NCBI GenBank assembly: GCA_035699205.1
Contig: DASSBA010000153.1
Location: 4,096-68,095 of the forward strand
Length of the DNA stretch: 64,000 nt
Source of the DNA: Gemmatimonadales bacterium
GTDB taxonomy: Bacteria; Gemmatimonadota; Gemmatimonadetes; Gemmatimonadales; GWC2-71-9
Direction: 5' to 3'
A model generated the notes under the pieces. That model was not told where the DNA came from. It made no database searches and saw only the letters and a program-made list of their open reading frames with translations. Both the position numbers and the translations under genes were made by a program. Positions 5,897-62,602 of this stretch are shown here, one piece after another (position 1 is the first letter of the stretch; every line of letters starts with the position of its first letter).

Positions 5897-5979
5897 GATT
5901 CCAGTCGGCCCGGTCACACCGCACACCCGCAGCGTGATGTGGCGCCTTCCTCTGGCACCGGCGAAAGTGAAGGTTGAAA

Positions 5980-5993
5980 AACGTAAGTACGTT
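5980..5993. promoter_or_regulatory. Palindrome AACGTA-AG-TACGTT in a relatively AT-rich divergent intergenic region (candidate operator)
   Basis: Read directly. It lies between the phosphatase start (5896, minus) and the CgeB-like start (6022, plus). Confidence 0.25.
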
Positions 5994-6021
5994 CGCCGTC
6001 AACCGCAGTCGCACGGTCGCG

Positions 6022-23874: not shown

Positions 23875-23877
23875 GGC

Positions 23878-24705: not shown

Positions 24706-24706
24706 G

Positions 24707-25735: not shown

Positions 25736-25792
25736 GTCGTCAGCGTGCCTCACTATGGAGTTCGAAGCCGGGAGCTCGGAATCGCGGCGAGT

Positions 25793-37519: not shown

Positions 37520-37521
37520 GG

Positions 37522-39315: not shown

Positions 39316-39519
39316 CGACTGGAGCGTCGGTCCGAGGGAAGGGGAGACCGGCAGCCCTTCGGTCGTCGACGCCCGCGAGGTTTCGTGATCGGTCACGGCA
39401 CCAACGTACTCTGTTCTCCGCGGCAGGGGCAAGCCGCCGGGCGCCGAACCCCGTCCGGCTGCCCGGCTGAGGGCAGTTAACTCCTTGCAATTCCGGTCCT
39501 TTAGCTCCATTCTCCAGCC

Positions 39520-40698: not shown

Positions 40699-43118
40699 TG
40701 CAGATCAACCGGCTCCGCCTCTGCAATTTCCGCCAGCACGAGAACACCGACCTCGAGCTCGGCGCGGGGCTGACGGGCATCATCGGGCCGAATGGTGCCG
40801 GGAAGACCACGCTGCTCGAGGCGATCGCCTGGGCGATGTACGGCATGCCCGCCGCGCGCGGCAGCCGTGATACGATCCGGCGACGCGGAGCGCCGCCGCG
40901 CTCGCGGGTGGAGGTCGAGCTGGAGTTCAGCCTCGGGGCGCATCAGTACCGCATTCTGCGGACGCTCAACAACGCCGAGCTCTACCAGGACGGCGACCCG
41001 GCGCCGATCGCGAACTCCATCGGCGCCGTGACCGAGCGGGTCACCCGCCTGCTCGGCATGACGCGCGACGAGTTCTTCAATACGTACTTTACGGGGCAGA
41101 AGGAGCTCGCCGTCATGGCCGCCATGTCGGCGCCCGAGCGCGCGCAATTCCTTTCCCGTGTGCTCGGCTACGAGCGCATCCGGGCGGCGCAGGACCGCCT
41201 GAAGGAGCGCCGATCCGCCCTGCGCGCGCGCCACGATGCCCTCCGGGCCGGGCTCGGCGACCTGGCGGAGATCGAGGCCGCCGAGACCCGCGCGCGCGAG
41301 CGCGTGGCCGCCGCCGGAGCCGCGGAATCGGCGGCGGCGGACGCGGCTTCCGTCGCCGAGCGGCGGCTGGGCGAGGTGCGCCCCCGCTGGGAACAGCTCC
41401 AACAGCTCCGCGACACGGCGCGCGCCCTCGAGGGCGAGCTCCGGCTGGCTCAGCACCAGTTGGCCGCGGCCACGGAACGCGCGGCACGGCTGCGGAGCCA
41501 GGCGGAGGAGGCCGCCGGCGCCGAACGGAAGCTCGAGGAGGTGGGACGGCGGCTCGCGCCGCTCCAGGCACTCCGTGAGGAGGCCGGCGCGCTGGAGCGG
41601 CAGGCGGAGGCCCACGCGCAGCGTCAGGGCGTGCTGGCACAGCTCGAGGACGTGCGCCGCCACCTGGGCTCGCTGGAGGGGCGGCTGGCCCGGCTCCCCG
41701 AAGCGCCCCGGCTCGAGGGCGCGCGCGTGCGGGTCAATGACCTGCGCGCCTCGATCACGACCGTGACCCTGGACGGCGAGACGCTGCGCTCCGCCTGGGT
41801 GCGCGACGCGCAGGATGCCAGGACCAAACGCCAGGGGCTGCTCGACCAGTACCAGGAGCTGAAGGAGCAGCGCCAGCGCATCGTGGAGGCGGGCCCCGAG
41901 GGGCAGTGTCCCACCTGCGCGCGGCCGCTCGGGACCGAATACGCCAAGGTGCTCGAGCTGCTCGACCGCCAGATGGGGGAGGTCGTCGCCAACGGCAATT
42001 TTTACAAGCAGCGCATCGAGCAGCTCCAGATCGAGCCGAAGGAGCTCGACGAAGCGGACCGCCTGCGGCTCGCGCTCGAGGCGGAGCTCGCGGCGGCAAT
42101 GAGCGAGCTGGGCCGGCTCGACGCGCAGGCACAGGAGGGCGGGGTGCTCGAGGGCGAGCGCCAGCGGCTGCTTCCCCGGCTCCAGGAGCTGGAAGCGGCA
42201 CTCGAGCGGCTGCGCGGCGCCTACGATCAGGGTCGCCACCGGGCGGTCGCGGCCGGCATCCGCGAGCTCGAGCCGCTCGCGCTCCAGGCCGAGCGGCTGC
42301 GCGCGGTGGCCGACCGGGGCGCCGGCGTGTCGGCCGAGCTCGCGGCCGCGGAGGCCGAGCGCGCCGTCGCGGCGGGACGGGACGCGGAGTTCGCGGCCCG
42401 TCTCGGCGAGCTCGGGTATACCGAGCAGGTCTACCACGAGGCCCGCGATGCGGCGGCGGCGGCCGAGCGGGCGCGTGGGGAGGCCGAGCTCGCGCTCGTG
42501 CGCGCCCGGGGCGAGTCGGCGGCGGCGGCGGAGGCGGTGGCCGCCGCGGCGCGGCGCCGGGCCGAACGGGCGGAGCGCGAGCGGGAAGCGAAGGCCGCCG
42601 GCGCCGAGCTCGCCCTGCATCAGGAGCTCGACCGCGCCCTCACCGATCTCCGGACTGATCTGAACGCGACGCTCCGCCCGGACCTGTCGGAGCTCGCCTC
42701 CGGGTTCCTGCGCGACCTGACCAACGGCCGGTACACGGACCTGGAGCTCGACGAGGACTACGGTGCCACGCTCCTCGATGACGGCGACCCGAAGGCGGTC
42801 ATCTCCGGCGGCGAGGAGGACGTTGCCAACCTCGCGCTCCGGCTGGCCATCAGCCAGATGATCGCCGAGCGGGCGGGGCAGCCGCTCTCGCTCCTCATCC
42901 TGGACGAGATCTTCGGCTCGCTGGACGAGGACCGCCGCGCCGCCGTGGTGGATCTGCTGAGGAGCCTGGCCGACCGGTTCCCGCAGGTCATCCTCATCAC
43001 CCACATCGACTCGGTGCGCGAGGGCTTCGATCGCGTGGTGCGCGTGGGCTACGATCTGGCGCGGGGCGTGGCTATGGTGAGCGACGAGCCAGCGGGAGGC
43101 CACGATGTGGCGGCCTGA
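40698..43118 (+). CDS. sbcC: DNA repair ATPase SbcC (Rad50-type SMC-like with zinc hook)
   Basis: ATG 40698 overlaps the sbcD TGA by 1 nt and gives MQINRLRLCNFRQH. Walker A is GPNGAGKTT. Long Ala/Glu/Arg coiled coils flank the CxxC hook EGQCPTCARPL. Signature ISGGEEDVANLALRLA, Walker B LLILDEIFGSLD. Confidence 0.88.
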   Translation: MQINRLRLCNFRQHENTDLELGAGLTGIIGPNGAGKTTLLEAIAWAMYGMPAARGSRDTIRRRGAPPRSRVEVELEFSLGAHQYRILRTLNNAELYQDGDPAPIANSIGAVTERVTRLLGMTRDEFFNTYFTGQKELAVMAAMSAPERAQFLSRVLGYERIRAAQDRLKERRSALRARHDALRAGLGDLAEIEAAETRARERVAAAGAAESAAADAASVAERRLGEVRPRWEQLQQLRDTARALEGELRLAQHQLAAATERAARLRSQAEEAAGAERKLEEVGRRLAPLQALREEAGALERQAEAHAQRQGVLAQLEDVRRHLGSLEGRLARLPEAPRLEGARVRVNDLRASITTVTLDGETLRSAWVRDAQDARTKRQGLLDQYQELKEQRQRIVEAGPEGQCPTCARPLGTEYAKVLELLDRQMGEVVANGNFYKQRIEQLQIEPKELDEADRLRLALEAELAAAMSELGRLDAQAQEGGVLEGERQRLLPRLQELEAALERLRGAYDQGRHRAVAAGIRELEPLALQAERLRAVADRGAGVSAELAAAEAERAVAAGRDAEFAARLGELGYTEQVYHEARDAAAAAERARGEAELALVRARGESAAAAEAVAAAARRRAERAEREREAKAAGAELALHQELDRALTDLRTDLNATLRPDLSELASGFLRDLTNGRYTDLELDEDYGATLLDDGDPKAVISGGEEDVANLALRLAISQMIAERAGQPLSLLILDEIFGSLDEDRRAAVVDLLRSLADRFPQVILITHIDSVREGFDRVVRVGYDLARGVAMVSDEPAGGHDVAA

Positions 43119-44061
43119 CCGCAGTCTGCGCGGCCCCGAGCGGCCGACCCTCCGGGATATCGAGCCGCTCAATCGGGTGTTCGCGGACGCGTTCACCGAC
43201 CGCTACGGCCGGGACGGTCTCGTCGGCGTGCGGGTGCCGCACCTCAACACCCTCGTGTGGCGCTACGCCCTGGAGGACGCGGGCGACGGCGCGATGATCT
43301 GGCGGGACGCGGAGGGGCGGCTCGTGGCATTCAACATGGTCCATCGTTCCGGCACCGAGGGCTGGATGGGCCCGCTCGCCGTCCGCCCCGACCGGCAGGG
43401 CGAGGGGCTCGGCTCCACGATGGTGCGGATCGGCATCGACTGGCTCAAGGGCCAGGGCGCCGGCACGATCGGCCTGGAGACGATGCCCCGCACGGTCGAA
43501 AACATCGGCTTCTACAGCCGGCTCGGCCTCGTGCCCGGCCGGCTCACGGTGACGCTGGTGCACGATGTGCCGCGCCGGTTGGCCGGTGCGCCCGAGCTTC
43601 TGTCCGCCGCCGGCCATCAGCTCTCGCGGCGGCTGGAGGAGTGCCGGCGGCTGACGCACGAGCTCGCGCCTGGCGTGGATTTCTCGCGCGAGATCACCCT
43701 CACCCGCGACCTCGGTATCGGCGACACCACGCTGGTGCGCGACGGCGGCGAACTCCTCGGGTTCGCTCTCTGGCACTCGACGCCCCTCGCGGCGGGCCGG
43801 GGCAAGGACGAGGTACGGGTGCTCAAGCTCGTCGCCCGGGATGCCGCCGGCTTCGAGCGCCTGCTCGATGCACTGCACGGCGCGGCCGCAGGGGAGCGGG
43901 TCGGCCGGATCGCGATCCGCTGCCAGACCGAGTACGCGGAGGCCTACCTCCGCCTCATCGCGGCGGGGTATCGGGTGCACTGGACCGACCTGCGGATGCT
44001 CCTGCAGGGGTTTCCGCCGAGCGCCCGGGAAGGGATCGTGCTGTCGAACTGGGAGATCTGA
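43105..44061 (+). CDS. GNAT family N-acetyltransferase (two-domain)
   Basis: GPLAVRPDRQGEGLGSTMVRIGIDWLKGQGA is the acetyl-CoA motif A (Q/RxxGxG/A). It overlaps the sbcC end by 14 nt. Confidence 0.8.
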   Translation: MWRPDRSLRGPERPTLRDIEPLNRVFADAFTDRYGRDGLVGVRVPHLNTLVWRYALEDAGDGAMIWRDAEGRLVAFNMVHRSGTEGWMGPLAVRPDRQGEGLGSTMVRIGIDWLKGQGAGTIGLETMPRTVENIGFYSRLGLVPGRLTVTLVHDVPRRLAGAPELLSAAGHQLSRRLEECRRLTHELAPGVDFSREITLTRDLGIGDTTLVRDGGELLGFALWHSTPLAAGRGKDEVRVLKLVARDAAGFERLLDALHGAAAGERVGRIAIRCQTEYAEAYLRLIAAGYRVHWTDLRMLLQGFPPSAREGIVLSNWEI

Positions 44062-45585: not shown

Positions 45586-47385
45586 ATGACGTACACCTTC
45601 AAGCTTGCGCGCAGACTGGCGGTCTCGCGACACTTCAGCGTGCTCACCACCCTCGTGTTGTTGGCAGCGTGCGCGGGAGAGACCACGGCGCCCGATGCCG
45701 GCTCTTCCGCCCCTGCGACGTCCCCCATAGCCCTCCAGGTGTTGCCCCGCTCGGTAGTGATCGAGACCAATCAGCGCGTGCGATTCTGGGGCCAGACGCG
45801 CACATCGAGGGGCGACCGCACCCCGCTTCCGGTTGCGTGGCACGCGACCGGCGGCACCATCAATCCCGATGGCAGCTTCCTCTCGACCACCTCCGGCACG
45901 TTCAAAGTGATCGGGCGCGGCCGCGGGCTGAACCAGATCGACACGTCCGTCGTGACGGTGGTCTCGCCGCCGACGAATCTGGCACGAATCGAAGTCACCC
46001 CCGATTCCACCACGCTGAATCCGGGCGCCACCCGGACCTTCGGCGTGATCGGCTATCGAAAGAACGGCTCGACGGTGAGCGTCGGCGTGAACTGGTCGGC
46101 CACCGGCGGCGACGTGGATGCGGCCGGTGACTACACGGCGGATTCGGCCACCGGCAGTTACCGCGTCATCGCCACCACTACGGGGGGCACGTTTGCCGAT
46201 ACTGCCATTGTCCGCATCAACCAGCCGGCGCCAACCCTCACGCAGCTCGTGATGTACCCGGCCAGCACGTCGCTCGAGGCGGGCGCCTCACAGCGGTTCG
46301 GCGCCTACGGACGCAACTCCGCGGGCGACAGCGTCGCCGTCGCCGTCAAGTTCAGCGCGACCGGTGGTACCATAAGCAGCACCGGGCTGTACACGGCCGG
46401 CCAGGCGTCGGGAACGTTCCGTGTCACGGCCGCGGTGGACGCCATTGCGGATTCGGCCACGGTCCTCGTGAAGGCGGTCGCCGCGGCCCCGACGCCTGCG
46501 CTCACGGGCTCGACCCTGGCCTTTGGCCCCTTCGGCCTGTTCAACACCGCGGGGCTCACCAATCCGGACGCCGCGTTCGCCACCCTGGGGCAGGACAGCT
46601 ACAACGCTTCGAACGTCGTCACCCGAATCGAGGCGGCCCGCGCGCGCGGCATTCACCTGATCCTCGCCCTGACCGGCGGCAAGCACGAGAACTACCTGAG
46701 CACGATCGACGGGGTGTACCAGTTCGACCGCGACAAGTGGGAGGCCAAGCTCCAGACCTTCAACACCACGAGCATCCGGCAGGCCATCGCCGCGGGTGTG
46801 GCCGATGGGACGATCATCGGCGCGAGTGTGATGGACGAGCCGAACGTCTCGGGCGCCGGCGACGGCAACACGTGGGGACCCCCGGGCACGATGACCAAGG
46901 CCCGGGTGGACTCGCTGTGCGGCGACTTCAAGGCCCTCTTCCCCACACTCCCGGCCGGGGTGGGACACCGCTGGGACGTCTTCGAGCCGACCAAGTCCTA
47001 CCGGGTCTGCGACTTCGTCACCTCACAGTATTCTACGCGGATCGGCAGTGTCACCAACTGGCGGGATGGTGGTCTTGCCATGGCCCGGCGCGACGGTCAC
47101 GAGATCATGTTCAGCATGAACCTTCTCAACGGCGGCACCCAGGACAGGGACGGGACGTGGGACTGCGCGGGAACCGGCGGTCGCGGGCTGCTGAGCCCCA
47201 ACTGCCGTATGACCGCCGCCCAGATTGCCGAGTATGGCCTGGCGCTCGGCCCCGCGGGATGTGGGGGGCTGTTGATGTGGGAGTATGACGACTCATTCAT
47301 GGCCAACGCCGATAATCAGAGGGCATTCAAGCAGATCGGCGACCGGCTGTCGACATTGCCGTCGAGACCCTGCCGAAGGCACTAG
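45586..47385 (+). CDS. Lipoprotein with three Big_2-like Ig repeats and a C-terminal putative glycanase-like domain
   Basis: GGAG lies 4 nt before the ATG. The lipobox is LVLLAAC. There are three roughly 85-aa repeats (V.P.S..L..G....F...G....G......V.WSATGG.I...G.YTA...GT.RV.A). The C-terminal half contains ASVMDEPN, an NEP-like motif. Confidence 0.8.
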   Translation: MTYTFKLARRLAVSRHFSVLTTLVLLAACAGETTAPDAGSSAPATSPIALQVLPRSVVIETNQRVRFWGQTRTSRGDRTPLPVAWHATGGTINPDGSFLSTTSGTFKVIGRGRGLNQIDTSVVTVVSPPTNLARIEVTPDSTTLNPGATRTFGVIGYRKNGSTVSVGVNWSATGGDVDAAGDYTADSATGSYRVIATTTGGTFADTAIVRINQPAPTLTQLVMYPASTSLEAGASQRFGAYGRNSAGDSVAVAVKFSATGGTISSTGLYTAGQASGTFRVTAAVDAIADSATVLVKAVAAAPTPALTGSTLAFGPFGLFNTAGLTNPDAAFATLGQDSYNASNVVTRIEAARARGIHLILALTGGKHENYLSTIDGVYQFDRDKWEAKLQTFNTTSIRQAIAAGVADGTIIGASVMDEPNVSGAGDGNTWGPPGTMTKARVDSLCGDFKALFPTLPAGVGHRWDVFEPTKSYRVCDFVTSQYSTRIGSVTNWRDGGLAMARRDGHEIMFSMNLLNGGTQDRDGTWDCAGTGGRGLLSPNCRMTAAQIAEYGLALGPAGCGGLLMWEYDDSFMANADNQRAFKQIGDRLSTLPSRPCRRH

Positions 47386-50917: not shown

Positions 50918-52753
50918 ATGTCGACTTCCATCGCCCCTCCCGAACCGCACGTGGCCGCTCCGCCGGGTTCGCAGCGGATGAACATCGTCATCGTGGGCCA
51001 CGTGGACCACGGCAAGAGCACGGTCATCGGCCGGCTGCTGGCCGATACCCACTCGCTCCCCGACGGGAAGCTCGAGCAGGTCCGGGCCGACTGCGAGCTC
51101 AACTCCAAGCCGTTCGAGTACGCGTTTCTGCTCGACGCGCTCAAGGACGAGCAGGCTCAGGGCATCACCATCGACGCCGCCCGCGTGTTCTTCCGGAGCA
51201 GCCTGCGTCCGTATCTGATCCTCGACGCGCCCGGGCACATCGAGTTCCTGAAGAACATGATCACCGGCGCCGCCCGGGCGGAGGCGGCGCTGCTGGTGAT
51301 CGACGCGGCGGAGGGGGTGCAGGAGAACTCCCGGCGCCACGGCTACATGGTCTCGATGCTCGGCATCCACCAGCTGGCGGTCGTGGTGAACAAGATGGAC
51401 CTGGTGGGCTGGGACGAGGCGGTCTATGACCGCATCGTCCGCGAGTACAGCGCCTTCCTCGAGCAGGTCGGCATCCGGCCCTCGTGCTTCATCCCGGTAT
51501 CCGGCCGCGGGGGCGACAACATCGCCGATCGCTCGAGCAATCTCTCCTGGTACACGGGACCCACGGTCCTCGACGCGCTGGACGCCTTCCGGAGCGAGCC
51601 GGCCCCGGTCGAACAGCGGTTCCGGATGCCGGTCCAGGACGTCTACAAGTTCACCAAGCAGGGTGACGACCGGCGCATCGTCGCGGGCACGATCGATTCG
51701 GGCACGGTGCGGGTGGGCGACGACGTGATCTTCTACCCCTCGGGCAAGAAAAGCCGGGTCAAGAGCATCGAGGCGTTCAACCGGCCGGTCCACACCCGTG
51801 CGGAGGCGGGCTGGGCCGTGGGGTTCACGCTCCAGGAGCAGATCTACATCACCCGTGGCGAGATCGCCACGCTGGAGGCCGAGCCGCGCCCGCAGGTCAC
51901 CACCCGCCTGCGCGTCAGCCTCTTCTGGCTGGGCAGGGAGCCGATGGTCAAGCGGAAGGAGTACCTGCTCAAGCTGGGCACCGCACGGGTGACCGCCCGG
52001 CTCGAGGAAGTGCTCCGGGTCATGGACGCCTCGAGTCTCGAAACGGCGCAGCAGCGCAACGCCGTCCAGCGTCACGATGTAGCCGAGTGCGTGCTGAAGC
52101 TCGACCGCGCGATCGCCTGCGACCTCGCCGCGGACGTCCCGTCCACCAGCCGGTTCGTGATCGTCGACGACTTCGAGATCCGGGGCGGCGGCATCGTCCG
52201 CGAGGCGCTCCCCGACCGGCAGACCGCGGTGCGGGACCGGGTGCTGCTCCGGAACTACAAATGGGAGCCGAGCATCATCCAGCCGGAGCACCGGGCGGAG
52301 AAGTACAATCAGAAGGCCGCCCTCATCCTGGTCACCGGCGAGCACGAGAGCGACCGGAAGGGCATCGCCAAGGCGCTCGAGGGGAAGCTGTTCGAGGACG
52401 GCAAGGTGGTGTACTTCCTGGGCATCGGCAGCGTGCTCTACGGCGTGGATGCCGACATCGAACGCAAGCCGGAGAACCGGCTGGAACACATGCGCCGCCT
52501 GGCCGAGGTGGCGAACCTCATGCTCGATGCGGGCATCATCCTCGTGGTCGCGGCCGCGGAGCTCACCCAGGACGACCTCGAGGTCATCAAGACCGCCGTC
52601 CCGCCCGACTGGATCGAGACGATCTGGGCTGGCGACACCATCACCACCGATCTCGCCTGCGACCTGCAGCTCCCGGGGGGGGCCGTGCCCGAGGCGGTGG
52701 ACCGCCTCAAGGCCCACCTGCAGGACAAGGGGATCATCTTCCGCCCATGGTGA
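50918..52753 (+). CDS. cysN: Sulfate adenylyltransferase subunit 1 (CysN GTPase) fused to a C-terminal APS-kinase-like domain that lacks a P-loop
   Basis: GTPase motifs are [15 protein letters not shown] and NKMD. The C-terminal roughly 165 aa read [35 protein letters not shown]...[25 protein letters not shown], which is collinear with CysC. The expected GLSGSGKST is replaced by [10 protein letters not shown]. Confidence 0.85.
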
Positions 52754-53508
52754 CCGGCGAGCTGCGGTTGGCGGTCTGCAACCTCGCCCGCGAGGCCGGT
52801 CGCGCGACCATGACGTACTACGACGGCGCGGCGCCGGCCGAGGTGCGGGAGAAGGCGGACCACAGTCCCGTCACGCTCGCGGACGAGGCCGCGCACGCCA
52901 TCCTCCTCGAAGGGCTCCGCCGGCTCGATCCGGCCACGCCGGTCGTCTCCGAGGAGGCCGAGGCGGCCTCGTTCGAGACCCGGCGCACCTGGCACCGGTT
53001 CTGGCTGGTGGACCCCCTCGACGGCACCAAGGAGTTCATCAAGCGCCGGGCCGAGTTCACCGTGAACGTCGCCCTGATCGAGCAGGGCGAGCCGGTGTTC
53101 GGCGTAGTGCTCGCGCCGGCGCTCGACCTGCTCTATTGGGGGCTGAAGGGCGGGGGCGCCTGGCGGGAGGAGCGGGGCGGCCCCGCCGAGCGGGTCTACT
53201 CCACCGCCCCCGCGCCCGGGACGCCGCTCACGGTCGTCGAGAGCCTCTCCCACCCTTCGCAGGAGCTCGAGGAGTATCTCCGGACCATTCCGGTGGCCCG
53301 GCGGGTCAAGGCCGGCAGCTCCCTCAAGTTCTGCTGGGTGGCCGACGGACGCGCCGACGTCTATCCCCGGCTCGGCCCCACGATGGAGTGGGACGTCGCG
53401 GCGGGGGACTGCGTCTACCGGCAGTCCGGCCGGGACGGCGAGCGGCCCTCGCCGCTCACGTACAACAAACCCGACCTCCGCAACACCAGCTTCGTCATCG
53501 GACTGTGA
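52747..53508 (+). CDS. cysQ: 3'(2'),5'-bisphosphate nucleotidase (PAP phosphatase)
   Basis: Internal ATG 52747 overlaps the cysN stop. Motifs are [24 protein letters not shown] and WDVAAGD. Confidence 0.88.
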
Positions 53509-54019
53509 GTCCGGCACCCGTGTTATGGTTCACCGGGCTCTCGGGCTCAGGGAAGAGCACCATCGCCACCCGGGTGCACGGGGAGCTGGTCCGGCGCGGG
53601 GCGGAGGTGGAGTACATCGACGGTGATGCGCTGCGTGAGGTGTTTCCGAACACCGGCTTCACCCGGGCCGAGCGCGAGGAGCACCTGCGCCGGACGGGGT
53701 ACATGGCGGGCCGGCTGGCCGCCCACGGGGTGACCGTGGTGGCCTCGTTCGTCTCGCCCTACCGCGAGTCGCGCGAGTTCATCCGGCGGCTGTGCCCCCA
53801 CTTCGTCGAAATCTACGTCTCGACGCCGCTGGAGGAGTGCGAGCGCCGGGACGTCAAGGGGCTCTACGCCCGCGCGCGGCGCGGGGACATCCGCAACTTC
53901 ACGGGAATCGACGACCCGTACGAGCCGCCCGATCATCCCGAGCTCACACTCGATACCCGCGCCCTGAGCGTGGACGAGTGCGTCGCCAGGGTGCTCGAGC
54001 GATCTGGAGGGCACGACTG

Positions 54020-54020
<1 letters not shown>
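53505..54020 (+). CDS. cysC: Adenylylsulfate (APS) kinase
   Basis: GTG 53505 forms a GTGA overlap with cysQ and gives [21 protein letters not shown]. Also [16 protein letters not shown] and DVKGLY. Confidence 0.9.
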
Positions 54021-54913
<893 letters not shown>

Positions 54914-55015: not shown

Positions 55016-55855
55016 ATGAAGAACGTCATGTCGGTGGACGTCGAGGACTGGTTCTGCGTCTACAACCTCAGCGGGCTGATCCCGTACGAGAGCTGGGACC
55101 GGTGCGAGTCCCGGGTGGAACGCAGCACGCTGCGGCTGCTCGAGCTGTTCGGACAGCACGGTGTGGAGGCGACATTCTTCGTGCTCGGCTGGGTGGCCGA
55201 GCGGTTTCCGGACCTGGTGCGGGAGATCGATCGCAGGGGACACGAGATCGCGACGCACGGATATTCGCACCGGCTGCTGACGTTCATGCGGCCCGCGGAG
55301 TTCCGTGATGATCTGCAGCGCTCGCTCGAGGTGCTGGCCAGGGCGACGACTCAGGAAGTGCGCGGCTTCCGCGCGCCCTCCTTCTCGCTGACGCGGAAGA
55401 CGGTCTGGGCCGTGGACATCCTCCGTGAAGCCGGCATGCAATACGATTCCTCGGTCTTCCCGGTCGGGTTCCATCCGGACTACGGCTTCGCGGGCGTGCA
55501 ACTCGCGCCCTATCGACTGGCCGAGGGCTTGACCGAGCTTCCCGTGGGAGTCGCGGAGGTGTTCGGGCAAAGAGTCCCGTGCAGCGGCGGCGGCTATTTT
55601 CGGCTGTTTCCCTATGCGGTGACGCGGCGCCTGATGCGGATGTGCAACGAGCAAGGGCGCCCGGTGATGTTCTACCTCCACCCGTGGGAGCTGGACCCGG
55701 GGCAGCCTCGCGTCCAACGACTGGGGTGGCTGAGACGATTCCGGCACTACACCAACCTCGCCAAGACGGAGGAGCGGCTGGAACGATTGCTGGCGGATTT
55801 TTCGTTCTACTCCGCGCGGCAGCTGATCGCGGGTCGGGAACCGCCAACCTCCTGA
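55016..55855 (+). CDS. Polysaccharide deacetylase (resembles the exosortase/PEP-CTERM-locus subfamily)
   Basis: MSVDVEDWF, ATFFVLGWVAERFPDLVREI, GHEIATHGYSH, GFRAPSFS and FYLHPWELD. Confidence 0.85.
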   Translation: MKNVMSVDVEDWFCVYNLSGLIPYESWDRCESRVERSTLRLLELFGQHGVEATFFVLGWVAERFPDLVREIDRRGHEIATHGYSHRLLTFMRPAEFRDDLQRSLEVLARATTQEVRGFRAPSFSLTRKTVWAVDILREAGMQYDSSVFPVGFHPDYGFAGVQLAPYRLAEGLTELPVGVAEVFGQRVPCSGGGYFRLFPYAVTRRLMRMCNEQGRPVMFYLHPWELDPGQPRVQRLGWLRRFRHYTNLAKTEERLERLLADFSFYSARQLIAGREPPTS

Positions 55856-55918: not shown

Positions 55919-56164
55919 ATGAACGCCGACAGGCTCCGGGAGTGCTTCAGCCACGCTCTCGGCATACCGCGGGAGCGCGTTACCGACGACCTCGCCTACA
56001 ACACTCTCGAGGAGTGGGACTCGGTCGGGCACATGGCACTGGTGGCGGAGCTCGAGGGCGAGTTCGACGTCATGTTCGACACCGACGACATCATCGGAAT
56101 GAGCACGGTGGCCAAGGCCCGCGAAATCCTGAGCCGACTCGGGGTCGCTTTCGATGCTGCTTGA
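55919..56164 (+). CDS. Acyl carrier protein (phosphopantetheine-binding)
   Basis: 81 aa, with GGAG 9 nt upstream. LEEWDSVGHMALVAELEGEF contains the attachment Ser in a DS motif. Confidence 0.8.
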   Translation: MNADRLRECFSHALGIPRERVTDDLAYNTLEEWDSVGHMALVAELEGEFDVMFDTDDIIGMSTVAKAREILSRLGVAFDAA

Positions 56165-56891
56165 CGGCCGGATCGCGCTGGTGACGGGCGCGAGCCGCGG
56201 CATTGGCGCGGCCATCGCGCGCGGGTTCGCCGCCGAGGGGGCCACCGTACTGCTGACCGCCCGCGGTGAGGGGGTGGACGAGCTGGCCCGCGAGCTCGAC
56301 GTGCCGCCGCGCCGGGCGGGCGCGATGCGCGGGGACATCAGCGATCCCGCCTTCGCGCGCGAGCTGATCGCCTGGGTCCGGAAGGAGCACGGCCGGCTGG
56401 ACGTGCTGGTGAACAACGCCGGAGTCCTCCGGCGTGGGTTGATCGGCATGATGTCCGCCGACCACATGCGCGAGCTGCTGGATGTGAACGTGCTCGCGGT
56501 CATGCTGCTGACGCAGTACGCCACGCGGATCATGGACTCGCAGCGGTTCCCGAGCGTCGTGAATCTGACGTCCATTGCGGGTACGCAGGGCTCCGAAGGC
56601 CTCACGGCCTACGCGGCATCGAAGGCGGCGGTGGTGGGGTACACGCTGGCGAGCGCCAAGGAGCTCGCCCCGAAGGGCATCCGGGTGAACGCGATCGCGC
56701 CCGGCCTGATCGACACCGAGATGATGCGATGGGTCACGGACGACTGGCAGGAGCGCCGGCTGCCGGCCATCCGCATGGGCCGCGTGGGAACGCCCGAGGA
56801 CGTCGCGGGCGTAGCGGTGTTCCTGGCTTCCCGGCTGTCGCGCTACGTGACCGGCCAGGTGATCGGCGTCGACGGGGGCATGACGGCGTGA
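56154..56891 (+). CDS. Short-chain dehydrogenase/reductase (FabG-like 3-oxoacyl-ACP reductase)
   Basis: VTGASRGIGAAIA, NNAG and YAASKAAVVG (YxxxK). It overlaps the ACP gene by 11 nt. Confidence 0.88.
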   Translation: MLLDGRIALVTGASRGIGAAIARGFAAEGATVLLTARGEGVDELARELDVPPRRAGAMRGDISDPAFARELIAWVRKEHGRLDVLVNNAGVLRRGLIGMMSADHMRELLDVNVLAVMLLTQYATRIMDSQRFPSVVNLTSIAGTQGSEGLTAYAASKAAVVGYTLASAKELAPKGIRVNAIAPGLIDTEMMRWVTDDWQERRLPAIRMGRVGTPEDVAGVAVFLASRLSRYVTGQVIGVDGGMTA

Positions 56892-58300
56892 TCGAGGCGG
56901 CGCTGCGGCACTCCGGTGCACAGCCGGCCCTGATCGCGCCCGCACAGGGCGTCCGCCTCACGTACGCCGAGCTCCGGACGCAGGTGGACGATGTCGCGGC
57001 GCGCCTGCACGGACTCCTGCCGGAGCGCCGGTTGGTGTTCCTGGCACCCGGACCGGATGTCCAGGCGGTGCTGTTGTATCTCGGCTGTCTGCGTGCCGGC
57101 CTGCCCGTGTGCCTGGCCGAGCCGCTCCCCGATCCGTTGGCGCGCCTGTCCCGCACCTACGGGCCCGCACTCGTGCTGGGCCCCGAAACCATGCGGCTGC
57201 CCGAAGGCGGGACGGTTGTCGCCTCGCCCGTTCCGGGCTACGCCGCCGTGCTGGCCGACCCTGCCGGCGAGCAGGCGCTCCACCCGGAGCTGGCGCTGCT
57301 CCTGACCACTTCGGGCTCCACCGGGAGCCCCAAGCTGGTTCGCCTGACGGCGCGCAACCTGGAATCGAACGCCACCGCGATCGCCACCTACCTCGCACTG
57401 GGACCGGCGGAGCGGGCGGTGCAGAGTCTCCCGATGCACTACAGCTACGGACTCTCCGTCTTGAACTCGCATCTGGTGGCGGGGGGCTGCGTCGTGCTGA
57501 CGCCGCACTCGTTCATCCGGCCGGAGTTCTGGCGGGAGGTGGACGAGCAGCGAGCCACCTCGTTCGCCGGGGTGCCCTACATGTATGAGACGCTGCACCG
57601 CCTGCGGTTCGACCCGGCGCGCCATCCGTCGCTGCGGACGCTGACGCAGGCGGGCGGGGCGCTGCGCCGGGACTTGATCGCGCATTTTCACGCCGCGGCC
57701 ACCGCTGCCGGCGCCCGGCTCGTGGTCATGTACGGCCAGACCGAGGCCACCGCGCGCATCGCCTACGTGCCGCCGGAGCGACTGGGTGAGAAGCTGGGCG
57801 CGATCGGCGTCCCGATTCCGGGAGGCCGGTTGAGACTTGAACCGGCCGAGGGCGCTGGCGGCGGTGCGACGGAGCTCGTGTACGAGGGCGAAAACGTGAT
57901 GCTGGGCTACGCCGAGGGCCCGGCCGACCTGGCCCTCGGCGACGTCCAGCACCGACGGCTGCGCACCGGCGACCTCGGCACAATGGACGCGGATGGCTAC
58001 TTCAGCGTCGTCGGGCGCCTGAAGCGGTTCGCCAAGCTGTTCGGCCGGCGCGTGAGCCTGGAAGACGTCGAGCGGGAGCTGGAGTCGGTCTTCCCGGTGC
58101 GCGCCATCGCCACGGAAGCCGGCGGCCGCCTGCGACTGCACGTCGTGGTGGACGGCGTGCTCCGCGATGGCCTGCTCGTGGCCCACCTGGCGCGCTTTCT
58201 CGCCGTGCCCCCATCCGCGATCGGGATCCACCGCGTGGCCGAGCTGCCGCTCACCACCACCGGGAAGAAGGACTACAGGGCGGTGGAGGCTGCGCCGTGA
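56888..58300 (+). CDS. AMP-dependent synthetase/ligase (ANL superfamily acyl-CoA or acyl-ACP ligase)
   Basis: GTG 56888 forms a GTGA overlap and gives VIEAALRHSG. Also LLTTSGSTGSPKLV (the AMP motif), YGQTEA, TGDLG and a C-terminal GKKDY. Confidence 0.85.
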   Translation: MIEAALRHSGAQPALIAPAQGVRLTYAELRTQVDDVAARLHGLLPERRLVFLAPGPDVQAVLLYLGCLRAGLPVCLAEPLPDPLARLSRTYGPALVLGPETMRLPEGGTVVASPVPGYAAVLADPAGEQALHPELALLLTTSGSTGSPKLVRLTARNLESNATAIATYLALGPAERAVQSLPMHYSYGLSVLNSHLVAGGCVVLTPHSFIRPEFWREVDEQRATSFAGVPYMYETLHRLRFDPARHPSLRTLTQAGGALRRDLIAHFHAAATAAGARLVVMYGQTEATARIAYVPPERLGEKLGAIGVPIPGGRLRLEPAEGAGGGATELVYEGENVMLGYAEGPADLALGDVQHRRLRTGDLGTMDADGYFSVVGRLKRFAKLFGRRVSLEDVERELESVFPVRAIATEAGGRLRLHVVVDGVLRDGLLVAHLARFLAVPPSAIGIHRVAELPLTTTGKKDYRAVEAAP

Positions 58301-59388
58301 CGAGCCCGGCCCGCGCATTGATGGAGCTGCCGCCCTTCGGGCTGAGCCAGGCCGAGAAGCGGGCCCGGCTGCTGCCCATGCTGCGGGAGCTCACGGCTCA
58401 CCACGCCGCCCGCTGCGAGACCTATCGAAATGTCCTGGACCGCGTCTTCGGTGGCGCCGACCAGCTCCGGATCGAGCGGATCGAGGACGTCCCGTACCTG
58501 CCCGTGATGCTGTTCAAGTCGCATCCGCTGTCGAGCGTGCCGGATTCCGAGGTGGTCAAGGTGCTCACGTCCAGCGGCACCACGGGGCAGCAGCCGAGTC
58601 GGGTGTTCCTGGACGCCGAGACCGCGTCGGTCCAGTCAGCGGTGCTGGTGAAGGTGGCGCAGCACTTCCTGGGCAGGGAGCGGCTGCCGATGGTAATCGT
58701 GGACCACCCCGGGGCGGTCCGGGACCGGCGCCATCACTCGGCGCGCGGCGCGGGGATTCTGGGCATGATGCAGTTCGGCCATCGCCCGTTCTATGCATTG
58801 GGCGACGACATGAGTCTGAACGAGGACGGGCTGCGCGCATACCTGGAGGGCGCGGCGGGCCGGCGCACGCTGCTGTTCGGCTTCACCTTCATGGTGTGGC
58901 AGTATCTCGTACGCGCGCTGGAGCGTGCCGGGCGCCGGCTGGAGCTGCCGGGCGGAGTCCTGGTGCATTCGGGAGGCTGGAAGAAGCTGCAGGACGAGGC
59001 CGTGGATCCGGCCACGTTCCGCGACCGGGTGCGGGCCGCGACCGGCGTGGAGCAGGTGATCAACTTCTACGGCATGGTCGAACAGGTCGGCGGGGTGTAC
59101 TTCGAGAATCCGATCCATTACCTGCAGGCACCCATCTACTCCGAAGTGATCGTGCGCGACCCGGTGACCCTGGTGCCGGTCCCCGACGGGCAGCCGGGGC
59201 TCGTTCAGGTCCTGAGCTGCCTGCCGACCAGTTACCCGGGCCATTCGCTGCTGACCGAAGATCTGGGTGTGATCCGGGGCGCCGACGCGGAGGGCACCGG
59301 CATGGGCGGCCGGTACTTCGAGATCCTGGGTCGGGCGCCGAAGGCCGAGCTGCGCGGATGCAGCGACACGTTCGCGGCGAGGGTATGA
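58297..59388 (+). CDS. LuxE-like acyl-protein synthetase (PaaK/LuxE-type adenylating enzyme)
   Basis: GTGA overlap with the ligase gene. 363 aa. Motifs are YLPVMLFK, VLTSSGTTGQQPSRVFLD, LVHSGGWKKL and INFYGMVEQ. Its size and its pairing with a LuxC-like gene support the call. Confidence 0.7.
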   Translation: MTSPARALMELPPFGLSQAEKRARLLPMLRELTAHHAARCETYRNVLDRVFGGADQLRIERIEDVPYLPVMLFKSHPLSSVPDSEVVKVLTSSGTTGQQPSRVFLDAETASVQSAVLVKVAQHFLGRERLPMVIVDHPGAVRDRRHHSARGAGILGMMQFGHRPFYALGDDMSLNEDGLRAYLEGAAGRRTLLFGFTFMVWQYLVRALERAGRRLELPGGVLVHSGGWKKLQDEAVDPATFRDRVRAATGVEQVINFYGMVEQVGGVYFENPIHYLQAPIYSEVIVRDPVTLVPVPDGQPGLVQVLSCLPTSYPGHSLLTEDLGVIRGADAEGTGMGGRYFEILGRAPKAELRGCSDTFAARV

Positions 59389-60647
59389 AGGGCGAGCCGC
59401 GCCCCTGGAGCACCGTGGCCGGGCGGGTCCGCGTGCTGGCCCCGGTGGGGCACGCAGCCGATCTGGCGGCCTTTCTTGACGGCACGCGCGACGTCCACGC
59501 CGAGCCGTTTTCCATGGCCCGGATGGATGCTCTGGCGCGGCTCTCGGCGGCGTTGCTGGCCGACCCCGTCCTCCGACGGGACCCGGCCAGCGTGTCGGTG
59601 GCGTACTGGCTGCGCCGGGCCCGGCTCGCCCGGCTGGCCGAGGAGCACGCCCGCCGCACCGCGGCGGAGCCGGACGTGCTGCGGGTGCCCGTGGGCCGGG
59701 TGCTTCACATGGCGCCCTCCAACGTGGACACGCTGTTCGTGTACTCGTGGGCGCTGGCGTTCCTGTGCGGCAATGCCAGCGTGGTGCGCCTGTCCCAGGA
59801 GTCGAGCGTCGTGGTCGACGCCCTGCTGCGCGTCATCTGCTCGGTGGCCGCCGAGGACGGCGAGCTGGCTGCATCGAACCGGTTCGTGACCTACGGGCAC
59901 GACGATGCGATCACCGCGGCGCTGTCGGCCTGGTGCGCCCACCGGGTGATCTGGGGCGGCGATGATGCCGTCGCCGCCATCCGGCCGTTGCCGCTGCCGT
60001 CGCACGCCAGCGAGCGGGTGTTCGGCAGCAAGTACTCGTTCGCGGTGATCGACGCCGACCGCTACCACGCCGCGCCGGCCGACGAGCGGGAGCGGGTCGC
60101 GTCCGGCTTCTTCAACGACCTGTTCTGGTTCGATCAGATGGCGTGCTCGTCGCCGCACGTGGTATTCTGGATCGGCGCCCGCGAGGCAGCCGAGACCGCC
60201 GCGCACGAATTCGAGCGCGCCCTTCAGGCCGAGGTGTCGCGCCGTGGCTTCGCGCCCCCGGTCTCGAGCGCGGTGCACCGGCGCAACTTCGCGTTCGACC
60301 TGGCGGCTTCGGCGGACGTGCGCGTGGTGCTCGAGCACCCCGGCTTCGTGGGGATCCACGTCCGCGACCCGGCGGCCCTCGACAAGGACATCTGCGGCGG
60401 AGGTCTGTTCCGGCACGCCACGGTCACGCGGCTGTCGGATGTGCTGGCGTTCATCGACGAGCGCGACCAGACGCTCACCCACTGGGGGATCGCGGGCGAG
60501 GCCCTCCGCAGCTTCACGGCCGCCGCCGGCGCGCGCGGACTCGATCGGGTCGTGCCGATCGGCGAAGCGCTGGCCTTCGACGTCGTATGGGACGGCTTCC
60601 ACCTGATCGACGACGTGCTTCGCCGCGTGCGGGTGCGGTGCTCGTGA
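59385..60647 (+). CDS. LuxC-like acyl-CoA/acyl-protein reductase (ALDH superfamily)
   Basis: ATGA overlap with the LuxE-like gene. Motifs are HMAPSNVDTLFVYSWALAFLCGNASVVRLS and FDQMACSSPHVVFW, the candidate catalytic Cys region. Confidence 0.7.
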   Translation: MKGEPRPWSTVAGRVRVLAPVGHAADLAAFLDGTRDVHAEPFSMARMDALARLSAALLADPVLRRDPASVSVAYWLRRARLARLAEEHARRTAAEPDVLRVPVGRVLHMAPSNVDTLFVYSWALAFLCGNASVVRLSQESSVVVDALLRVICSVAAEDGELAASNRFVTYGHDDAITAALSAWCAHRVIWGGDDAVAAIRPLPLPSHASERVFGSKYSFAVIDADRYHAAPADERERVASGFFNDLFWFDQMACSSPHVVFWIGAREAAETAAHEFERALQAEVSRRGFAPPVSSAVHRRNFAFDLAASADVRVVLEHPGFVGIHVRDPAALDKDICGGGLFRHATVTRLSDVLAFIDERDQTLTHWGIAGEALRSFTAAAGARGLDRVVPIGEALAFDVVWDGFHLIDDVLRRVRVRCS

Positions 60648-60672
60648 TCCCCGGTGCCGCCGGGGCTCGCCG

Positions 60673-61530
60673 GTGAGACTTCGGCTCTCTCCCCTGTCGG
60701 CCGCGACCGGGGAGGCATTGCCGGAGATCGCCGGACTGCTCGAGCGCGTGTTCCCCCGCGCTCGACCGTGGGCCCCCGATCTGGAGTGGCAGTATCTGCG
60801 GAATCCGGCGGGCGTCACCCGCTACGTCAACGGCTACGCGGAAACGGGCGAACTCATCGCCCATTACGCGGTGCAGCCGATGGTGCCGCTGGCCGAGCCG
60901 CCGTTCGCGTTCGCGGGTACCTATTTCCCGCTGAACACGGCCGTGCATCCGGCTGCCCGGGTGCCCGGGCTGATGGTGGCGACCGCGCGGGCGCTGTTCC
61001 GGGAGCTGGAGCGGCTGGGCCCGGCCCTGGTGTTGGGAGTCGCCAACGAGAATTCGTTCCCGGCCTACGTGCGAATGCTGGGCTTTCGGTCATTGGGCAG
61101 GCTGTCGCTCACCCTGCATGCCCCGGGGACGCTCCCCGCCGTCGTGGTGCCCAGGGCGCTGGGACACGACGCGGCACACCTGGCCTGGCGCACTCGGCGG
61201 CCGGGCGTGGCCGCCTACGGCGAGCCCGGCAGGGGCGCGCTCACGGTCCGGCTGCGGCATCGCGGCGTGGGGCTCGATGCCGTGCTCTCGACGGGCCTGC
61301 CGGGGGACCTGATCGCCGGCCTCGGGCTGGCCCGGCCCGCCCGGTGGGCTCCGAGACTCTACGCCGCCTTCGGCGGGCGGGTCGGGGGAGGGCTGCCCGT
61401 GCCCGGACGACTGCGACCAAGCCCCCTCGAGTACGTCATGCGCGTGCTGGGCGACCCGGCCCTGGCCGAGCCGGTCGCCCGACACCTTGGGGCGCGCCGG
61501 TTCGAGTTCCTGGATTTCGACGTGGTATGA
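60673..61530 (+). CDS. GNAT/FemAB-like acyltransferase
   Basis: GTG start, 285 aa. Contains VHPAARVPGLMVATARALF and LVLGVANENSFPAYVRMLGFRSLG, which is GNAT-like. Confidence 0.6.
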   Translation: MRLRLSPLSAATGEALPEIAGLLERVFPRARPWAPDLEWQYLRNPAGVTRYVNGYAETGELIAHYAVQPMVPLAEPPFAFAGTYFPLNTAVHPAARVPGLMVATARALFRELERLGPALVLGVANENSFPAYVRMLGFRSLGRLSLTLHAPGTLPAVVVPRALGHDAAHLAWRTRRPGVAAYGEPGRGALTVRLRHRGVGLDAVLSTGLPGDLIAGLGLARPARWAPRLYAAFGGRVGGGLPVPGRLRPSPLEYVMRVLGDPALAEPVARHLGARRFEFLDFDVV

Positions 61531-61687
61531 GCCGGGCACGGAGGGCTGCCCTCCCGGGCTCGCGCTTTGGTAGATTGCCCGTTGCCGGCGGCCAGGTCAA
61601 TTGTGTGTGGAGGGCACGAATTGTGCACGCCGGTCGCGGGATCCCCAAACCCCGCCGGCGCCTCGAACCGGGAGCCATGAACCGCTG

Positions 61688-62602
61688 ATGCAGATCACCA
61701 GACCGCTCATCATCGTGGGCACCGGCCGGTGCGGGTCGACCGTCTTCCACCGACTGCTCGCCCAGCATCCGCGAGTCATGTGGCTGTCGGGCTTCGCTGA
61801 GCGCTATCCCGACAAACCGGCATGGAACCGGTGGGCGGTTACCGCGACGGGTACCCCGCTGCTTCACCCGCTGCTCGGCGAGAAGATCCGGCCCGCGGAG
61901 GCGTACAGCTTCTGGGACCGATACGCGTATGGGTTTTCCGAGCCGTGCCGCGACCTCGGCCGGGCCGACGTGACTCCTCGTGTCAAGCGGCAGCTGCGGA
62001 GCGCGATCGAGCGGATGCTCACCCGGGCGCGCGACCGTCTGCTCGTCAAGATCACCGGGTGGCCGCGGATCGGCTTCCTCAACGGGGTCTTCGAGGACGC
62101 CGGGTTCGTGCACATCATTCGCGACGGCCGCGCCGTCGCCAACTCGCTGCTGCACGTCAATTTCTGGCGTGGCTGGCAGGGGCCGCAGGGTTGGCGCGCG
62201 GGTCTCCTCTCGCCCGAAGACCAGGCCGCCTGGGAGGCCTACGACCGTTCGTTCGTCGCCCTCGCGGGGATCGAGTGGCGCATCCAGATGCGGGCGATCG
62301 AAGCCGCCCGGCGCGCGCTCGACCCCGGGCTCTTCCTCGAAATCCGATACGAGGAATTCTGCCAGGCGCCGCAGGAAACCTTCCGGCGCGTCCTGGAGTT
62401 CGCGGAGCTGCCCCGCTCCCCCGGCTTCGAACGGCGTATCGAGTCGGCGTCCATCAGAGACATGAGCAACCGGTGGCGCGACGATCTCACCCCCGAGCAG
62501 CAGGTCGTGCTGGACGATCTGTTGCGCGAGGATCTGCGGCGCTATGGCTATGAGCCGTCCGACAAGGACCAGAGAGTCGCGGAAGCCGCCGCCGCCAGAT
62601 GA
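61688..62602 (+). CDS. Sulfotransferase family protein (Sulfotransfer_3-like)
   Basis: Internal ATG 61688 gives MQITRPLIIVGTGRCGSTVFHRLL, a P-loop-like 5-prime PSB motif. Also VHIIRDGRAVANSLL (3-prime PB-like). Confidence 0.8.
   Translation: MQITRPLIIVGTGRCGSTVFHRLLAQHPRVMWLSGFAERYPDKPAWNRWAVTATGTPLLHPLLGEKIRPAEAYSFWDRYAYGFSEPCRDLGRADVTPRVKRQLRSAIERMLTRARDRLLVKITGWPRIGFLNGVFEDAGFVHIIRDGRAVANSLLHVNFWRGWQGPQGWRAGLLSPEDQAAWEAYDRSFVALAGIEWRIQMRAIEAARRALDPGLFLEIRYEEFCQAPQETFRRVLEFAELPRSPGFERRIESASIRDMSNRWRDDLTPEQQVVLDDLLREDLRRYGYEPSDKDQRVAEAAAAR

Follow-up and report, generated by a model that had tools for sequence, protein, structure and literature searches.

A five-gene carrier protein, ligase and LuxE/LuxC-like cassette joined to a deacetylase gene and a predicted tandem-GNAT gene in a Gemmatimonadales exopolysaccharide locus

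Genes resembling luxC and luxE, together with those for an acyl carrier protein (ACP) and a ligase, have long been noted in O-antigen and flagellin glycosylation loci, where the published comments guess at a lipid product. In 98 Aeromonas strains, the group II polar-flagellin glycosylation islands carry five such genes in the same order, immediately after pseH (PMC7874193), and enterobacterial flagellin glycosylation islands carry an Acp/FabG/CaiC/LuxE/LuxC set (PMC4875605). Both reports call these fatty-acid genes and suggest a lipid component, which neither of them tests. Here, we describe a cassette that matches this set in its five functions and in their order (ACP, 3-oxoacyl-ACP reductase, AMP-dependent synthetase, LuxE, and LuxC, the Aeromonas genes being compared by description) in a Gemmatimonadales bacterium (assembly GCA_035699205.1, contig DASSBA010000153.1). 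It lies, with a sixth gene, at positions 55919 to 61530 of a stretch of 64,000 nucleotides (nt) with about 70% G+C, which we call the window. Both the taxon names of near-identical proteins and the sequencing runs containing this stretch indicate that the bacterium is an uncultured one from soil. Loci of this type in Rheinheimera, Marinobacter, Alteromonas, and Pantoea contain all five genes, with 48 to 51% LuxE identity to the window. Whereas in the Aeromonas islands the cassette follows pseH among pseudaminic-acid and flagellin genes, the window has no pse genes and, among its genes scanned, no flagellar ones; unlike Aeromonas, it combines the cassette with a CE4/DUF3473 deacetylase, an orphan putative tandem GNAT, and a Wza/Wzc/Wzx exopolysaccharide (EPS) locus with genes for the supply of 3′-phosphoadenosine 5′-phosphosulfate (PAPS). 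The five-gene set is already known from Aeromonas and enterobacteria; what is new here is the joining of a deacetylase and of an unrecognised, presumably tandem-GNAT family to that set. We give an even chance to the reading that the resulting seven-gene unit swaps the N-acetyl group of an EPS amino sugar for a small, reduced acyl group.

The six consecutive open reading frames (ORFs) of the + strand are 55919-56164, 56154-56891, 56888-58300, 58297-59388, 59385-60647, and 60673-61530. The stop of the ACP gene and the start of the second gene, encoding a short-chain dehydrogenase/reductase (SDR), overlap by 11 nt (ATGCTGCTTGA), the SDR/ligase and ligase/LuxE junctions overlap in GTGA, and the LuxE/LuxC junction overlaps in ATGA; after the LuxC-like gene, a 25-nt gap precedes the GTG start of the sixth gene. 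The translations contain WDSVGH, TSGSTGSPK, SSGTTGQ, and DQMACSSPH. An earlier note on this DNA had described six close genes with four overlaps, one 25-nt gap, and these motifs, all of which we found where it had placed them. The G+C content at third codon positions (0.84 to 0.93) is of the coding type in all six genes, and a composition-based gene caller recovers every one of them. Two starts are uncertain: that of the LuxC-like gene, at 59385 or, according to the composition-based caller, at 59358, and that of the ligase gene, for which an in-frame ATG at 56729 is a second candidate. We argue for a single transcript from the ACP gene to the LuxC-like gene since their stop and start codons overlap. 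A scan for consensus promoters and terminators from 45 to 64 kb gave counts at or below chance and was uninformative, and one soil metatranscriptome provided short contigs of a related strain, of which one, 202 nt long, spans the ligase/LuxE junction, DNA carry-over being possible.

According to our analysis, the fourth gene (58297-59388, + strand) encodes a LuxE-like acyl-protein synthetase, which matches PF04443 with 163 bits (1.3e-47; gathering score, 24.9), while the fifth (59385-60647, + strand) encodes a LuxC-like acyl-thioester reductase, which matches PF05893 with 101.5 bits (6.2e-29; gathering score, 21) and carries its active-site Cys254 in DQMACSSP. The LuxE and LuxC assignments proposed earlier therefore stand against PaaK (5.5e-4 for the LuxE-like protein, which also matches AMP-binding at 3e-3) and against Aldedh (5e-3 for the LuxC-like protein, below the cutoff). 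The sole PDB match of the LuxE-like protein is LuxE (7xc6_E, 4.4e-16), and that of the LuxC-like protein is LuxC (7xc6_A, 1.2e-5), with DQMACSS aligned to the active-site DQQACFS. For either protein, this LuxC-LuxE bioluminescence complex from Photobacterium (7xc6; PMC9157457) is the one relative with a solved structure. Its structure by cryo-electron microscopy identified Lys238 and Arg355 as the LuxE adenylation pair and Cys364 as the acylated cysteine (PMC9157457). These residues align with Lys229, Arg346, and Cys355 of the window protein, which are kept in 80 to 81 of the 81 loci introduced below, and the LuxC active-site cysteine is matched by Cys254, kept in all 77 aligned homologues. 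The LuxE-like enzyme would adenylate a carboxylate and carry it on its C-terminal Cys355. Compared with the bioluminescence enzymes, however, identity is low, the cassette also has an ACP, a second ligase, and an SDR, and the context is one of glycan synthesis. The NCBIfam bioluminescence equivalogs NF052244 and NF052251 are missed by the LuxE-like protein (78.7 bits versus a cutoff of 550) and the LuxC-like protein (47.9 versus 750), and neither a luciferase (luxAB) nor a LuxD family member was found among the window genes scanned.

The remaining three genes of the cassette encode the ACP, the SDR, and the ligase. The first (55919-56164, + strand) encodes an ACP of 81 amino acids with a match to PF00550 (PP-binding) at 5.5e-7 and weak matches to ACPs in the PDB (4e-3); Ser35 in WDSVGH, the predicted phosphopantetheine site, is kept in 71/71 cassette ACPs and Asp34 in 69 of the 71. 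The second (56154-56891, + strand) encodes a FabG-like SDR (adh_short_C2, 4.7e-64) whose best NCBIfam matches are of the FabG type (236 bits, below the equivalog cutoffs) and whose Ser140, Tyr153, and Lys157 triad is kept in 70/70 homologues; we propose that it reduces a carbonyl, namely an aldehyde, on an ACP-bound intermediate. The third (56888-58300, + strand) encodes an ANL (AMP-forming) ligase of 470 amino acids (AMP-binding PF00501, 1.6e-44) with a conserved P-loop, TSGSTGSPK, which is proposed to load an acid onto the ACP. Its top NCBIfam match, TIGR03098, reaches 150 bits against a cutoff of 592, which places the ligase outside that family, and among solved structures, it stands closest to feruloyl-CoA synthetase, oxalate-CoA and malonyl-CoA ligases, and DltA.

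When the LuxE-like protein was searched against 1.84 billion representative proteins, 2,247 relatives were obtained, of which the best 150 were examined. A scan of genomes, with one genome per species, gave 80 loci from more than 10 phyla with LuxE identities of 44 to 82%, and these, with one metagenome relative, form the set of 81 loci that was inspected by tblastn with the window proteins. The loci belong to Gemmatimonadota, Verrucomicrobiota, Planctomycetes, four proteobacterial classes, Bacillota, Bacteroidota, Acidobacteriota, Nostoc, Actinoplanes, and spirochaetes. The genes for ACP, SDR, ligase, LuxE, and LuxC occur in this order on one strand in 49/81 loci, within 5.6 kb in 44 of these, and nine more differ only by a swap of ACP and SDR; most of the remaining loci are cut by contig ends. 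The sixth gene was detected in two loci, both of Gemmatimonadota, for which reason the conserved unit is one of five genes, ACP-SDR-ligase-LuxE-LuxC, and not of six. The six-gene module of the earlier note thus holds for its five-gene core, whereas its last gene is lineage-restricted and a deacetylase gene upstream, left out of it, belongs to the block. Seen in this way, the cassette is one conserved and mobile unit spread over many phyla. One copy, on the plasmid NZ_CP026517.1 of Deinococcus sp. NW-56 (locus L085, 5383-10771), is followed by a gene for a 213-amino-acid "acetyltransferase" in an EPS locus with insertion sequence elements; this locus has no pse genes, RefSeq names its parts generically, and such a plasmid copy is a possible route of horizontal spread. 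The cassette was not found in E. coli genomes by blastn with the Pantoea copy as the query.

Natural fusions join the cassette enzymes among the best 150 LuxE-like relatives, namely LuxE-LuxC, ligase-LuxE, LuxE-LuxC-ligase (1,279 amino acids), and iron alcohol dehydrogenase-LuxE (P0241, P0258, P0298, and P0320/P0395), which argues that the activities belong to one pathway with an alcohol-forming step beside LuxE. The iron alcohol dehydrogenase was also considered as a replacement for the SDR and rejected for this set of loci, as the dehydrogenase part of P0395 matched only two of them by tblastn, both of which have the SDR.

To describe the surroundings of the cassette, 688 flanking ORFs were clustered and the largest clusters were named with Pfam and NCBIfam. 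DegT-type sugar aminotransferases are found in 36 loci, and PseB, PseG, PseI, and PseF occur in the flanks, all above their NCBIfam equivalog cutoffs. In 19 loci there is a PseH-like GNAT, which reaches 78 bits where the PseH cutoff is 93, and in 11 a PglD/NeuD-type hexapeptide N-acyltransferase; a gene of one or the other kind directly adjoins the cassette in 25 loci. Where at least 4 kb of sequence is available on each side, as in 54 loci, a pse gene, a DegT gene, or a PseH- or PglD-like transferase gene stands at most six genes away in 42. The general idea of the earlier note, that a carrier-bound acyl unit is made for a glycan, gains support from this glycan-gene context. The other 12 well-flanked loci are without pse, DegT, or such transferase genes; they include the Gemmatimonadota loci and two loci of Acidobacteriaceae, four in all, which carry a DUF3473 deacetylase instead. 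Counting the predicted tandem GNAT, the cassette is habitually found beside amino-sugar N-acyltransferases of three unrelated folds.

Directly upstream of the cassette, the gene at 55016-55855 (+ strand) encodes a CE4 polysaccharide deacetylase with a C-terminal DUF3473 domain, of the XrtA-system deacetylase family (TIGR03006, 346 bits versus a cutoff of 276; Pfam Polysacc_deac_1, 3e-23, and DUF3473, 8e-46), whose translation shows the HxxxH motif (HGYSH) and DVED. It lies directly 5′ of the ACP gene in all four Gemmatimonadales relatives examined and also in locus L002. The order deacetylase-ACP-SDR-ligase-LuxE-LuxC-tandem GNAT is invariant in these four further Gemmatimonadales contigs while the flanks vary, with PAPS genes or a GT4 gene upstream and a sulfotransferase, an Rrf2 regulator, or a TylF methyltransferase downstream. 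The Gemmatimonadales unit therefore comprises seven genes, including the CE4/DUF3473 deacetylase gene.

The sixth gene of the earlier reading (60673-61530, + strand) encodes a protein of 285 amino acids with no Pfam or NCBIfam match at E values up to 0.01 and no PDB sequence match. It has at least 120 homologues, those listed being all at least 68% identical; the few named taxa among them are Gemmatimonadales metagenome-assembled genomes, and a few bear the source tags PF13527 or "RimI-like." An AlphaFold2 model built from 45 homologues (pLDDT, 90.6; pTM, 0.87) was compared with the PDB by Foldseek, and the top matches are all two-domain GNATs (probability 1.0; E values down to 5e-10; TMq, ~0.54), namely 2hv2, 2i00, Eis (3sxn), MAB_4324 (7q3a), the histidine N-acyltransferase 9emp, whose structure holds N-myristoyl-histidine, and N-myristoyltransferase (NMT). 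The model thus predicts a tandem GNAT of the Eis/NMT type, for which we propose the role of an acyl-ACP:amino-sugar N-acyltransferase. The label "GNAT-like" of the earlier note agrees with the predicted fold, although no GNAT sequence profile matches the protein. A95 and P98-G99-L100-M101, within RVPGLM, are invariant and V97 is nearly so; in our own reading of the model, this stretch may occupy the place of the GNAT pantetheine-binding loop. The gene lies directly 3′ of the LuxC-like gene in the four Gemmatimonadales relatives examined, and it appears to represent an unrecognised, orphan family, whose listed homologues are from Gemmatimonadales wherever a taxon is named.

Two candidates for hidden homologues of this protein, the other GNAT of the window (43105-44061) and a gene product of about 303 amino acids from the Acidobacteriaceae locus L021, were rejected with hhalign probabilities of <1%. 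The latter gene, present at L021:12295-13206 and L028:12291-13202, stands between LuxC and the DUF3473 deacetylase gene, has no family match, and could encode a further transferase partner. A TylF-type methyltransferase gene lies beside the tandem-GNAT gene in L002 (12417-13097), where it stands between LuxC and the GNAT gene, and in L084 (10226-10906); its product may act as an O-methyltransferase on the sugar or on the acyl group.

A deacetylase that goes together with a double-GNAT-fold transferase is reminiscent of the XrtA/PEP-CTERM EPS loci, in which the deacetylase is paired with a FemAB-like protein (TIGR03019). The deacetylase of the window passes TIGR03006, and TIGR03098 is the ligase's top match, though below its cutoff. 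However, the tandem-GNAT protein has no TIGR03019 match, the Wza- and Wzc-like genes fall below the XrtA-specific cutoffs, and no exosortase gene turned up in the 64 kb of the window, beyond whose position 64000 one could lie.

In the reaction sequence that we favor, the ligase would adenylate a malate- or succinate-type short di-acid and link one of its carboxyls as a thioester to the phosphopantetheine of the ACP. LuxE would then adenylate the remaining free carboxyl, take it on Cys355, and pass it to Cys254 of LuxC, which would reduce it to an aldehyde with NAD(P)H, and the SDR would reduce the aldehyde to an alcohol, giving an omega-hydroxyacyl-ACP such as 2,4-dihydroxybutanoyl- or 4-hydroxybutanoyl-ACP. 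The deacetylase would take an N-acetyl group off a sugar residue of the glycan under assembly, the tandem GNAT would move the acyl group from the ACP to the amine so exposed, and the neighboring PAPS genes and sulfotransferases would add sulfate to the same polymer. What we infer here is which substrate is used, in what order the steps run, what the SDR does, and that deacetylation is coupled to re-acylation. A di-acid is the simplest account of the substrate because two carboxylate-activating enzymes, the ANL ligase and LuxE, are present in one cassette. The di-acid route also fits the fusion of an alcohol dehydrogenase to LuxE, the oxalate- and malonyl-CoA ligases among the closest solved structures to our ligase, and the parts list of V. 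cholerae discussed below, none of which proves it. That the amine arises by removal of N-acetyl, followed by re-acylation through the tandem GNAT, is suggested by the fixed pairing with the CE4 deacetylase and by the fact that no aminotransferase is at hand.

The V. cholerae O1 genes RfbK-O (WbeK-O; VC0248 to VC0252), which serve the tetronate (2,4-dihydroxybutanoyl) N-acylation of perosamine, resemble the unit in architecture. Of their products, RfbN is of the LuxE/LuxC type, RfbM is an iron alcohol dehydrogenase, and RfbO belongs to the hexapeptide transferases. On this list, the carrier, the AMP-ligase, the LuxE/LuxC-type reductase, the alcohol-forming reductase, and the N-acyltransferase all have counterparts in the window, which presumably differs in having an SDR for the iron alcohol dehydrogenase, LuxE and LuxC as separate instead of fused proteins, and a predicted tandem GNAT for the hexapeptide-repeat transferase. 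In the window, deacetylation probably yields the acceptor, the task of a perosamine synthase in V. cholerae. RfbK-O is not among the 80 genome loci or the best 150 LuxE-like representatives. A published description ascribes to RfbL the loading of 2,4-dihydroxybutanoate, with either CoA or the carrier RfbK as the recipient (PMC12208996).

A further point in favor comes from Aeromonas piscicola AH-3, in which the five genes lie directly after pseH and the linking sugar of the flagellin glycan is a pseudaminic acid (Pse) derivative of 376.14 Da (PMC7874193). The AH-3 glycan ends in an unexplained unit of 102 Da, and mutants in which the cassette is retained still have the 376-Da sugar (PMC7874193). 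By our own arithmetic, replacing an acetyl group of Pse5Ac7Ac (316.127 − 42.011) with C4H6O3 (102.032) gives 376.148, so that a dihydroxybutanoyl group fits both the 376-Da and the 102-Da masses; this fit is ours and not a result of PMC7874193. Together with the spread of the cassette as one unit and its N-acyltransferase neighbors, masses that fit a C4 dihydroxy-acyl product turn a vague annotation into a specific, testable hypothesis.

Several points weigh against the proposed N-acyl exchange. The literature searched contains no biochemical datum on any cassette member, and the substrate of an ANL ligase is poorly predicted by similarity. LuxC-family enzymes can reduce acyl-ACP or acyl-CoA thioesters directly (bioRxiv 10.1101/2025.08.11.669332), so the cassette could release an aldehyde, and the FabG-like SDR could equally reduce a 3-oxo group. 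The call of a tandem GNAT rests on a predicted fold with a TM of ~0.54, and the C4H6O3 group that fits the AH-3 mass is isomeric with O-methylglyceroyl. Finally, no sugar aminotransferase (DegT), pse, or NeuB/nonulosonic-acid gene was found among the window genes scanned, which leaves deacetylation as the presumed source of the acceptor amine.

An unlikely alternative, offered in both of the papers that describe the cassette (PMC7874193, PMC4875605), is a "liposugar," in which LuxE and LuxC act on a long-chain fatty acid and a fatty aldehyde or acyl-ACP lipidates or anchors the glycan. The family match and the catalytic residues of LuxE and LuxC hold, as this would need, and the structural relatives of the tandem GNAT include an N-myristoyltransferase and an enzyme forming N-myristoyl-histidine. 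Yet the bioluminescence equivalogs are missed by far (79 versus 550 bits for LuxE and 48 versus 750 for LuxC), the window genes scanned include neither LuxD nor a luciferase, and a plain fatty acid needs neither a second activating enzyme nor an ACP. The sole available glycan masses of a cassette bearer, 376 and 102 Da (PMC7874193), are too small for a long chain.

We deem similarly unlikely a route in which the ligase loads acetoacetate or another 3-oxo acid and the FabG-like SDR forms 3-hydroxybutanoyl-ACP, the source of the N-acyl group that, acetyl aside, is the most common on nonulosonic acids, with LuxE and LuxC being accessory or serving recycling. The SDR does score best against FabG and acetoacetyl-CoA reductase models, and PseH-like acyltransferases adjoin the cassette. 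This route, however, leaves LuxE and LuxC, the most conserved members and often fused, without a role. Moreover, 3-hydroxybutanoyl groups occur in loci that have no such cassette. The expected Pse5Ac7(3Hb) would weigh 360 Da by our own arithmetic, against the 376 Da found in AH-3 (PMC7874193).

It is quite improbable, in our judgement, that LuxC frees the ACP- or LuxE-bound acyl group as an aldehyde that is then joined to a sugar amine through an imine and reduction by the SDR (N-alkylation) or that forms an acetal, with the GNAT-fold protein doing something else, such as ordinary acetylation. The earlier note had allowed for an aldehyde unit, the SDR is present, and the LuxC-family enzyme TabE, which releases aldehydes from acyl-thioesters without ATP, offers a precedent (bioRxiv 10.1101/2025.08.11.669332). 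Against this, 25 loci have an N-acyltransferase gene adjoining the cassette, the transferases met across phyla are of three unrelated folds (PseH-like GNAT, PglD-like LbH, and tandem GNAT), and no precedent for an imine reductase was found. We favor acyl transfer over aldehyde release because these adjoining N-acyltransferases recur across phyla. That the genes make a lipid, a signal, or a secondary metabolite and merely sit inside the locus is very improbable, for although the link to the glycan is an indirect one in the Gemmatimonadales bacterium, the same-strand, overlapping genes between Wza/Wzc/PAPS and sulfotransferase/Wzx, the invariant block with a polysaccharide deacetylase, and the glycan context of most related loci speak against it.

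Beyond this locus, we tentatively suggest that the cassette might be the general genetic basis by which, in more than 10 phyla, pseudaminic acid and further amino sugars of flagellin glycans, capsules, and EPS receive short hydroxylated N-acyl groups (dihydroxybutanoyl or 4-hydroxybutanoyl type). Such groups would be made from an ACP-tethered di-acid reduced by LuxE/LuxC and the SDR, and in Gemmatimonadales the cassette would have been rewired, with a new tandem-GNAT family, to polymer editing in which deacetylation precedes re-acylation. The Gemmatimonadales version suggests N-acyl editing after assembly on a presumably sulfated soil EPS, in which the new omega-hydroxyl might also be a site for the adjacent sulfotransferases; it bears on how abundant and mostly uncultured soil bacteria build their matrix.

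The genes around the unit belong to the same EPS locus. Upstream and on the same strand are genes for a Wza-like exporter, a Wzc-like kinase, PAPS supply, and the deacetylase. The PAPS supply genes (50978-54913, + strand) encode CysN (with a partial CysC), CysQ, CysC, and CysD, according to the Pfam matches GTP_EFTU with partial APS_kinase, Inositol_P, APS_kinase, and PAPS_reduct. The partial APS-kinase domain of the CysN gene (50978-52753) covers profile positions 2 to 88 of 152, and a complete, separate CysC gene lies two genes downstream (53520-54020). This layout and the order of the PAPS genes are the same in loci L001 and L083, while a GT4 gene takes their place in L084. Downstream, outside the conserved block, are a sulfotransferase gene (61688-62602, + strand; Sulfotransfer_3, 3.5e-22; the start may be at 61601) and a Wzx flippase gene that runs off the window; a second sulfotransferase gene, a sulfate ABC transporter, and sugar-nucleotide genes lie farther off. 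The PAPS genes and the sulfotransferases make the sulfated product that the earlier note had foreseen plausible. The sulfate ABC transporter and a PorinO_P gene are found at 21959-27178 (− strand), about 30 kb from the module, whereas in L001 and L083 the transporter lies directly downstream of the module, after the Rrf2 regulator; the varying arrangement suggests that the sulfation supply region is shuffled between relatives.

Shewanella sfmABCDE, considered as an instance of the same cassette, was rejected since it comprises PseI-like, FabG-like, methyltransferase, and ATP-grasp functions without LuxE or LuxC (PMC3765264). Elsewhere in the window, ORFs of 647, 587, and 599 amino acids (29627-31570, 9219-10982, and 45586-47385, respectively) have a good coding signal and no family match or a weak match to Big_2. 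Two adjacent genes on the − strand (35663-37558 and 37522-40533) encode CLC chloride channels with CBS domains, the second with an N-terminal extension of about 470 amino acids that has no family match. Three tandem paralogous Glyco_trans_1_2 genes occupy 11821-15136 (− strand), and a fourth copy lies at 5974-7098 (+ strand).

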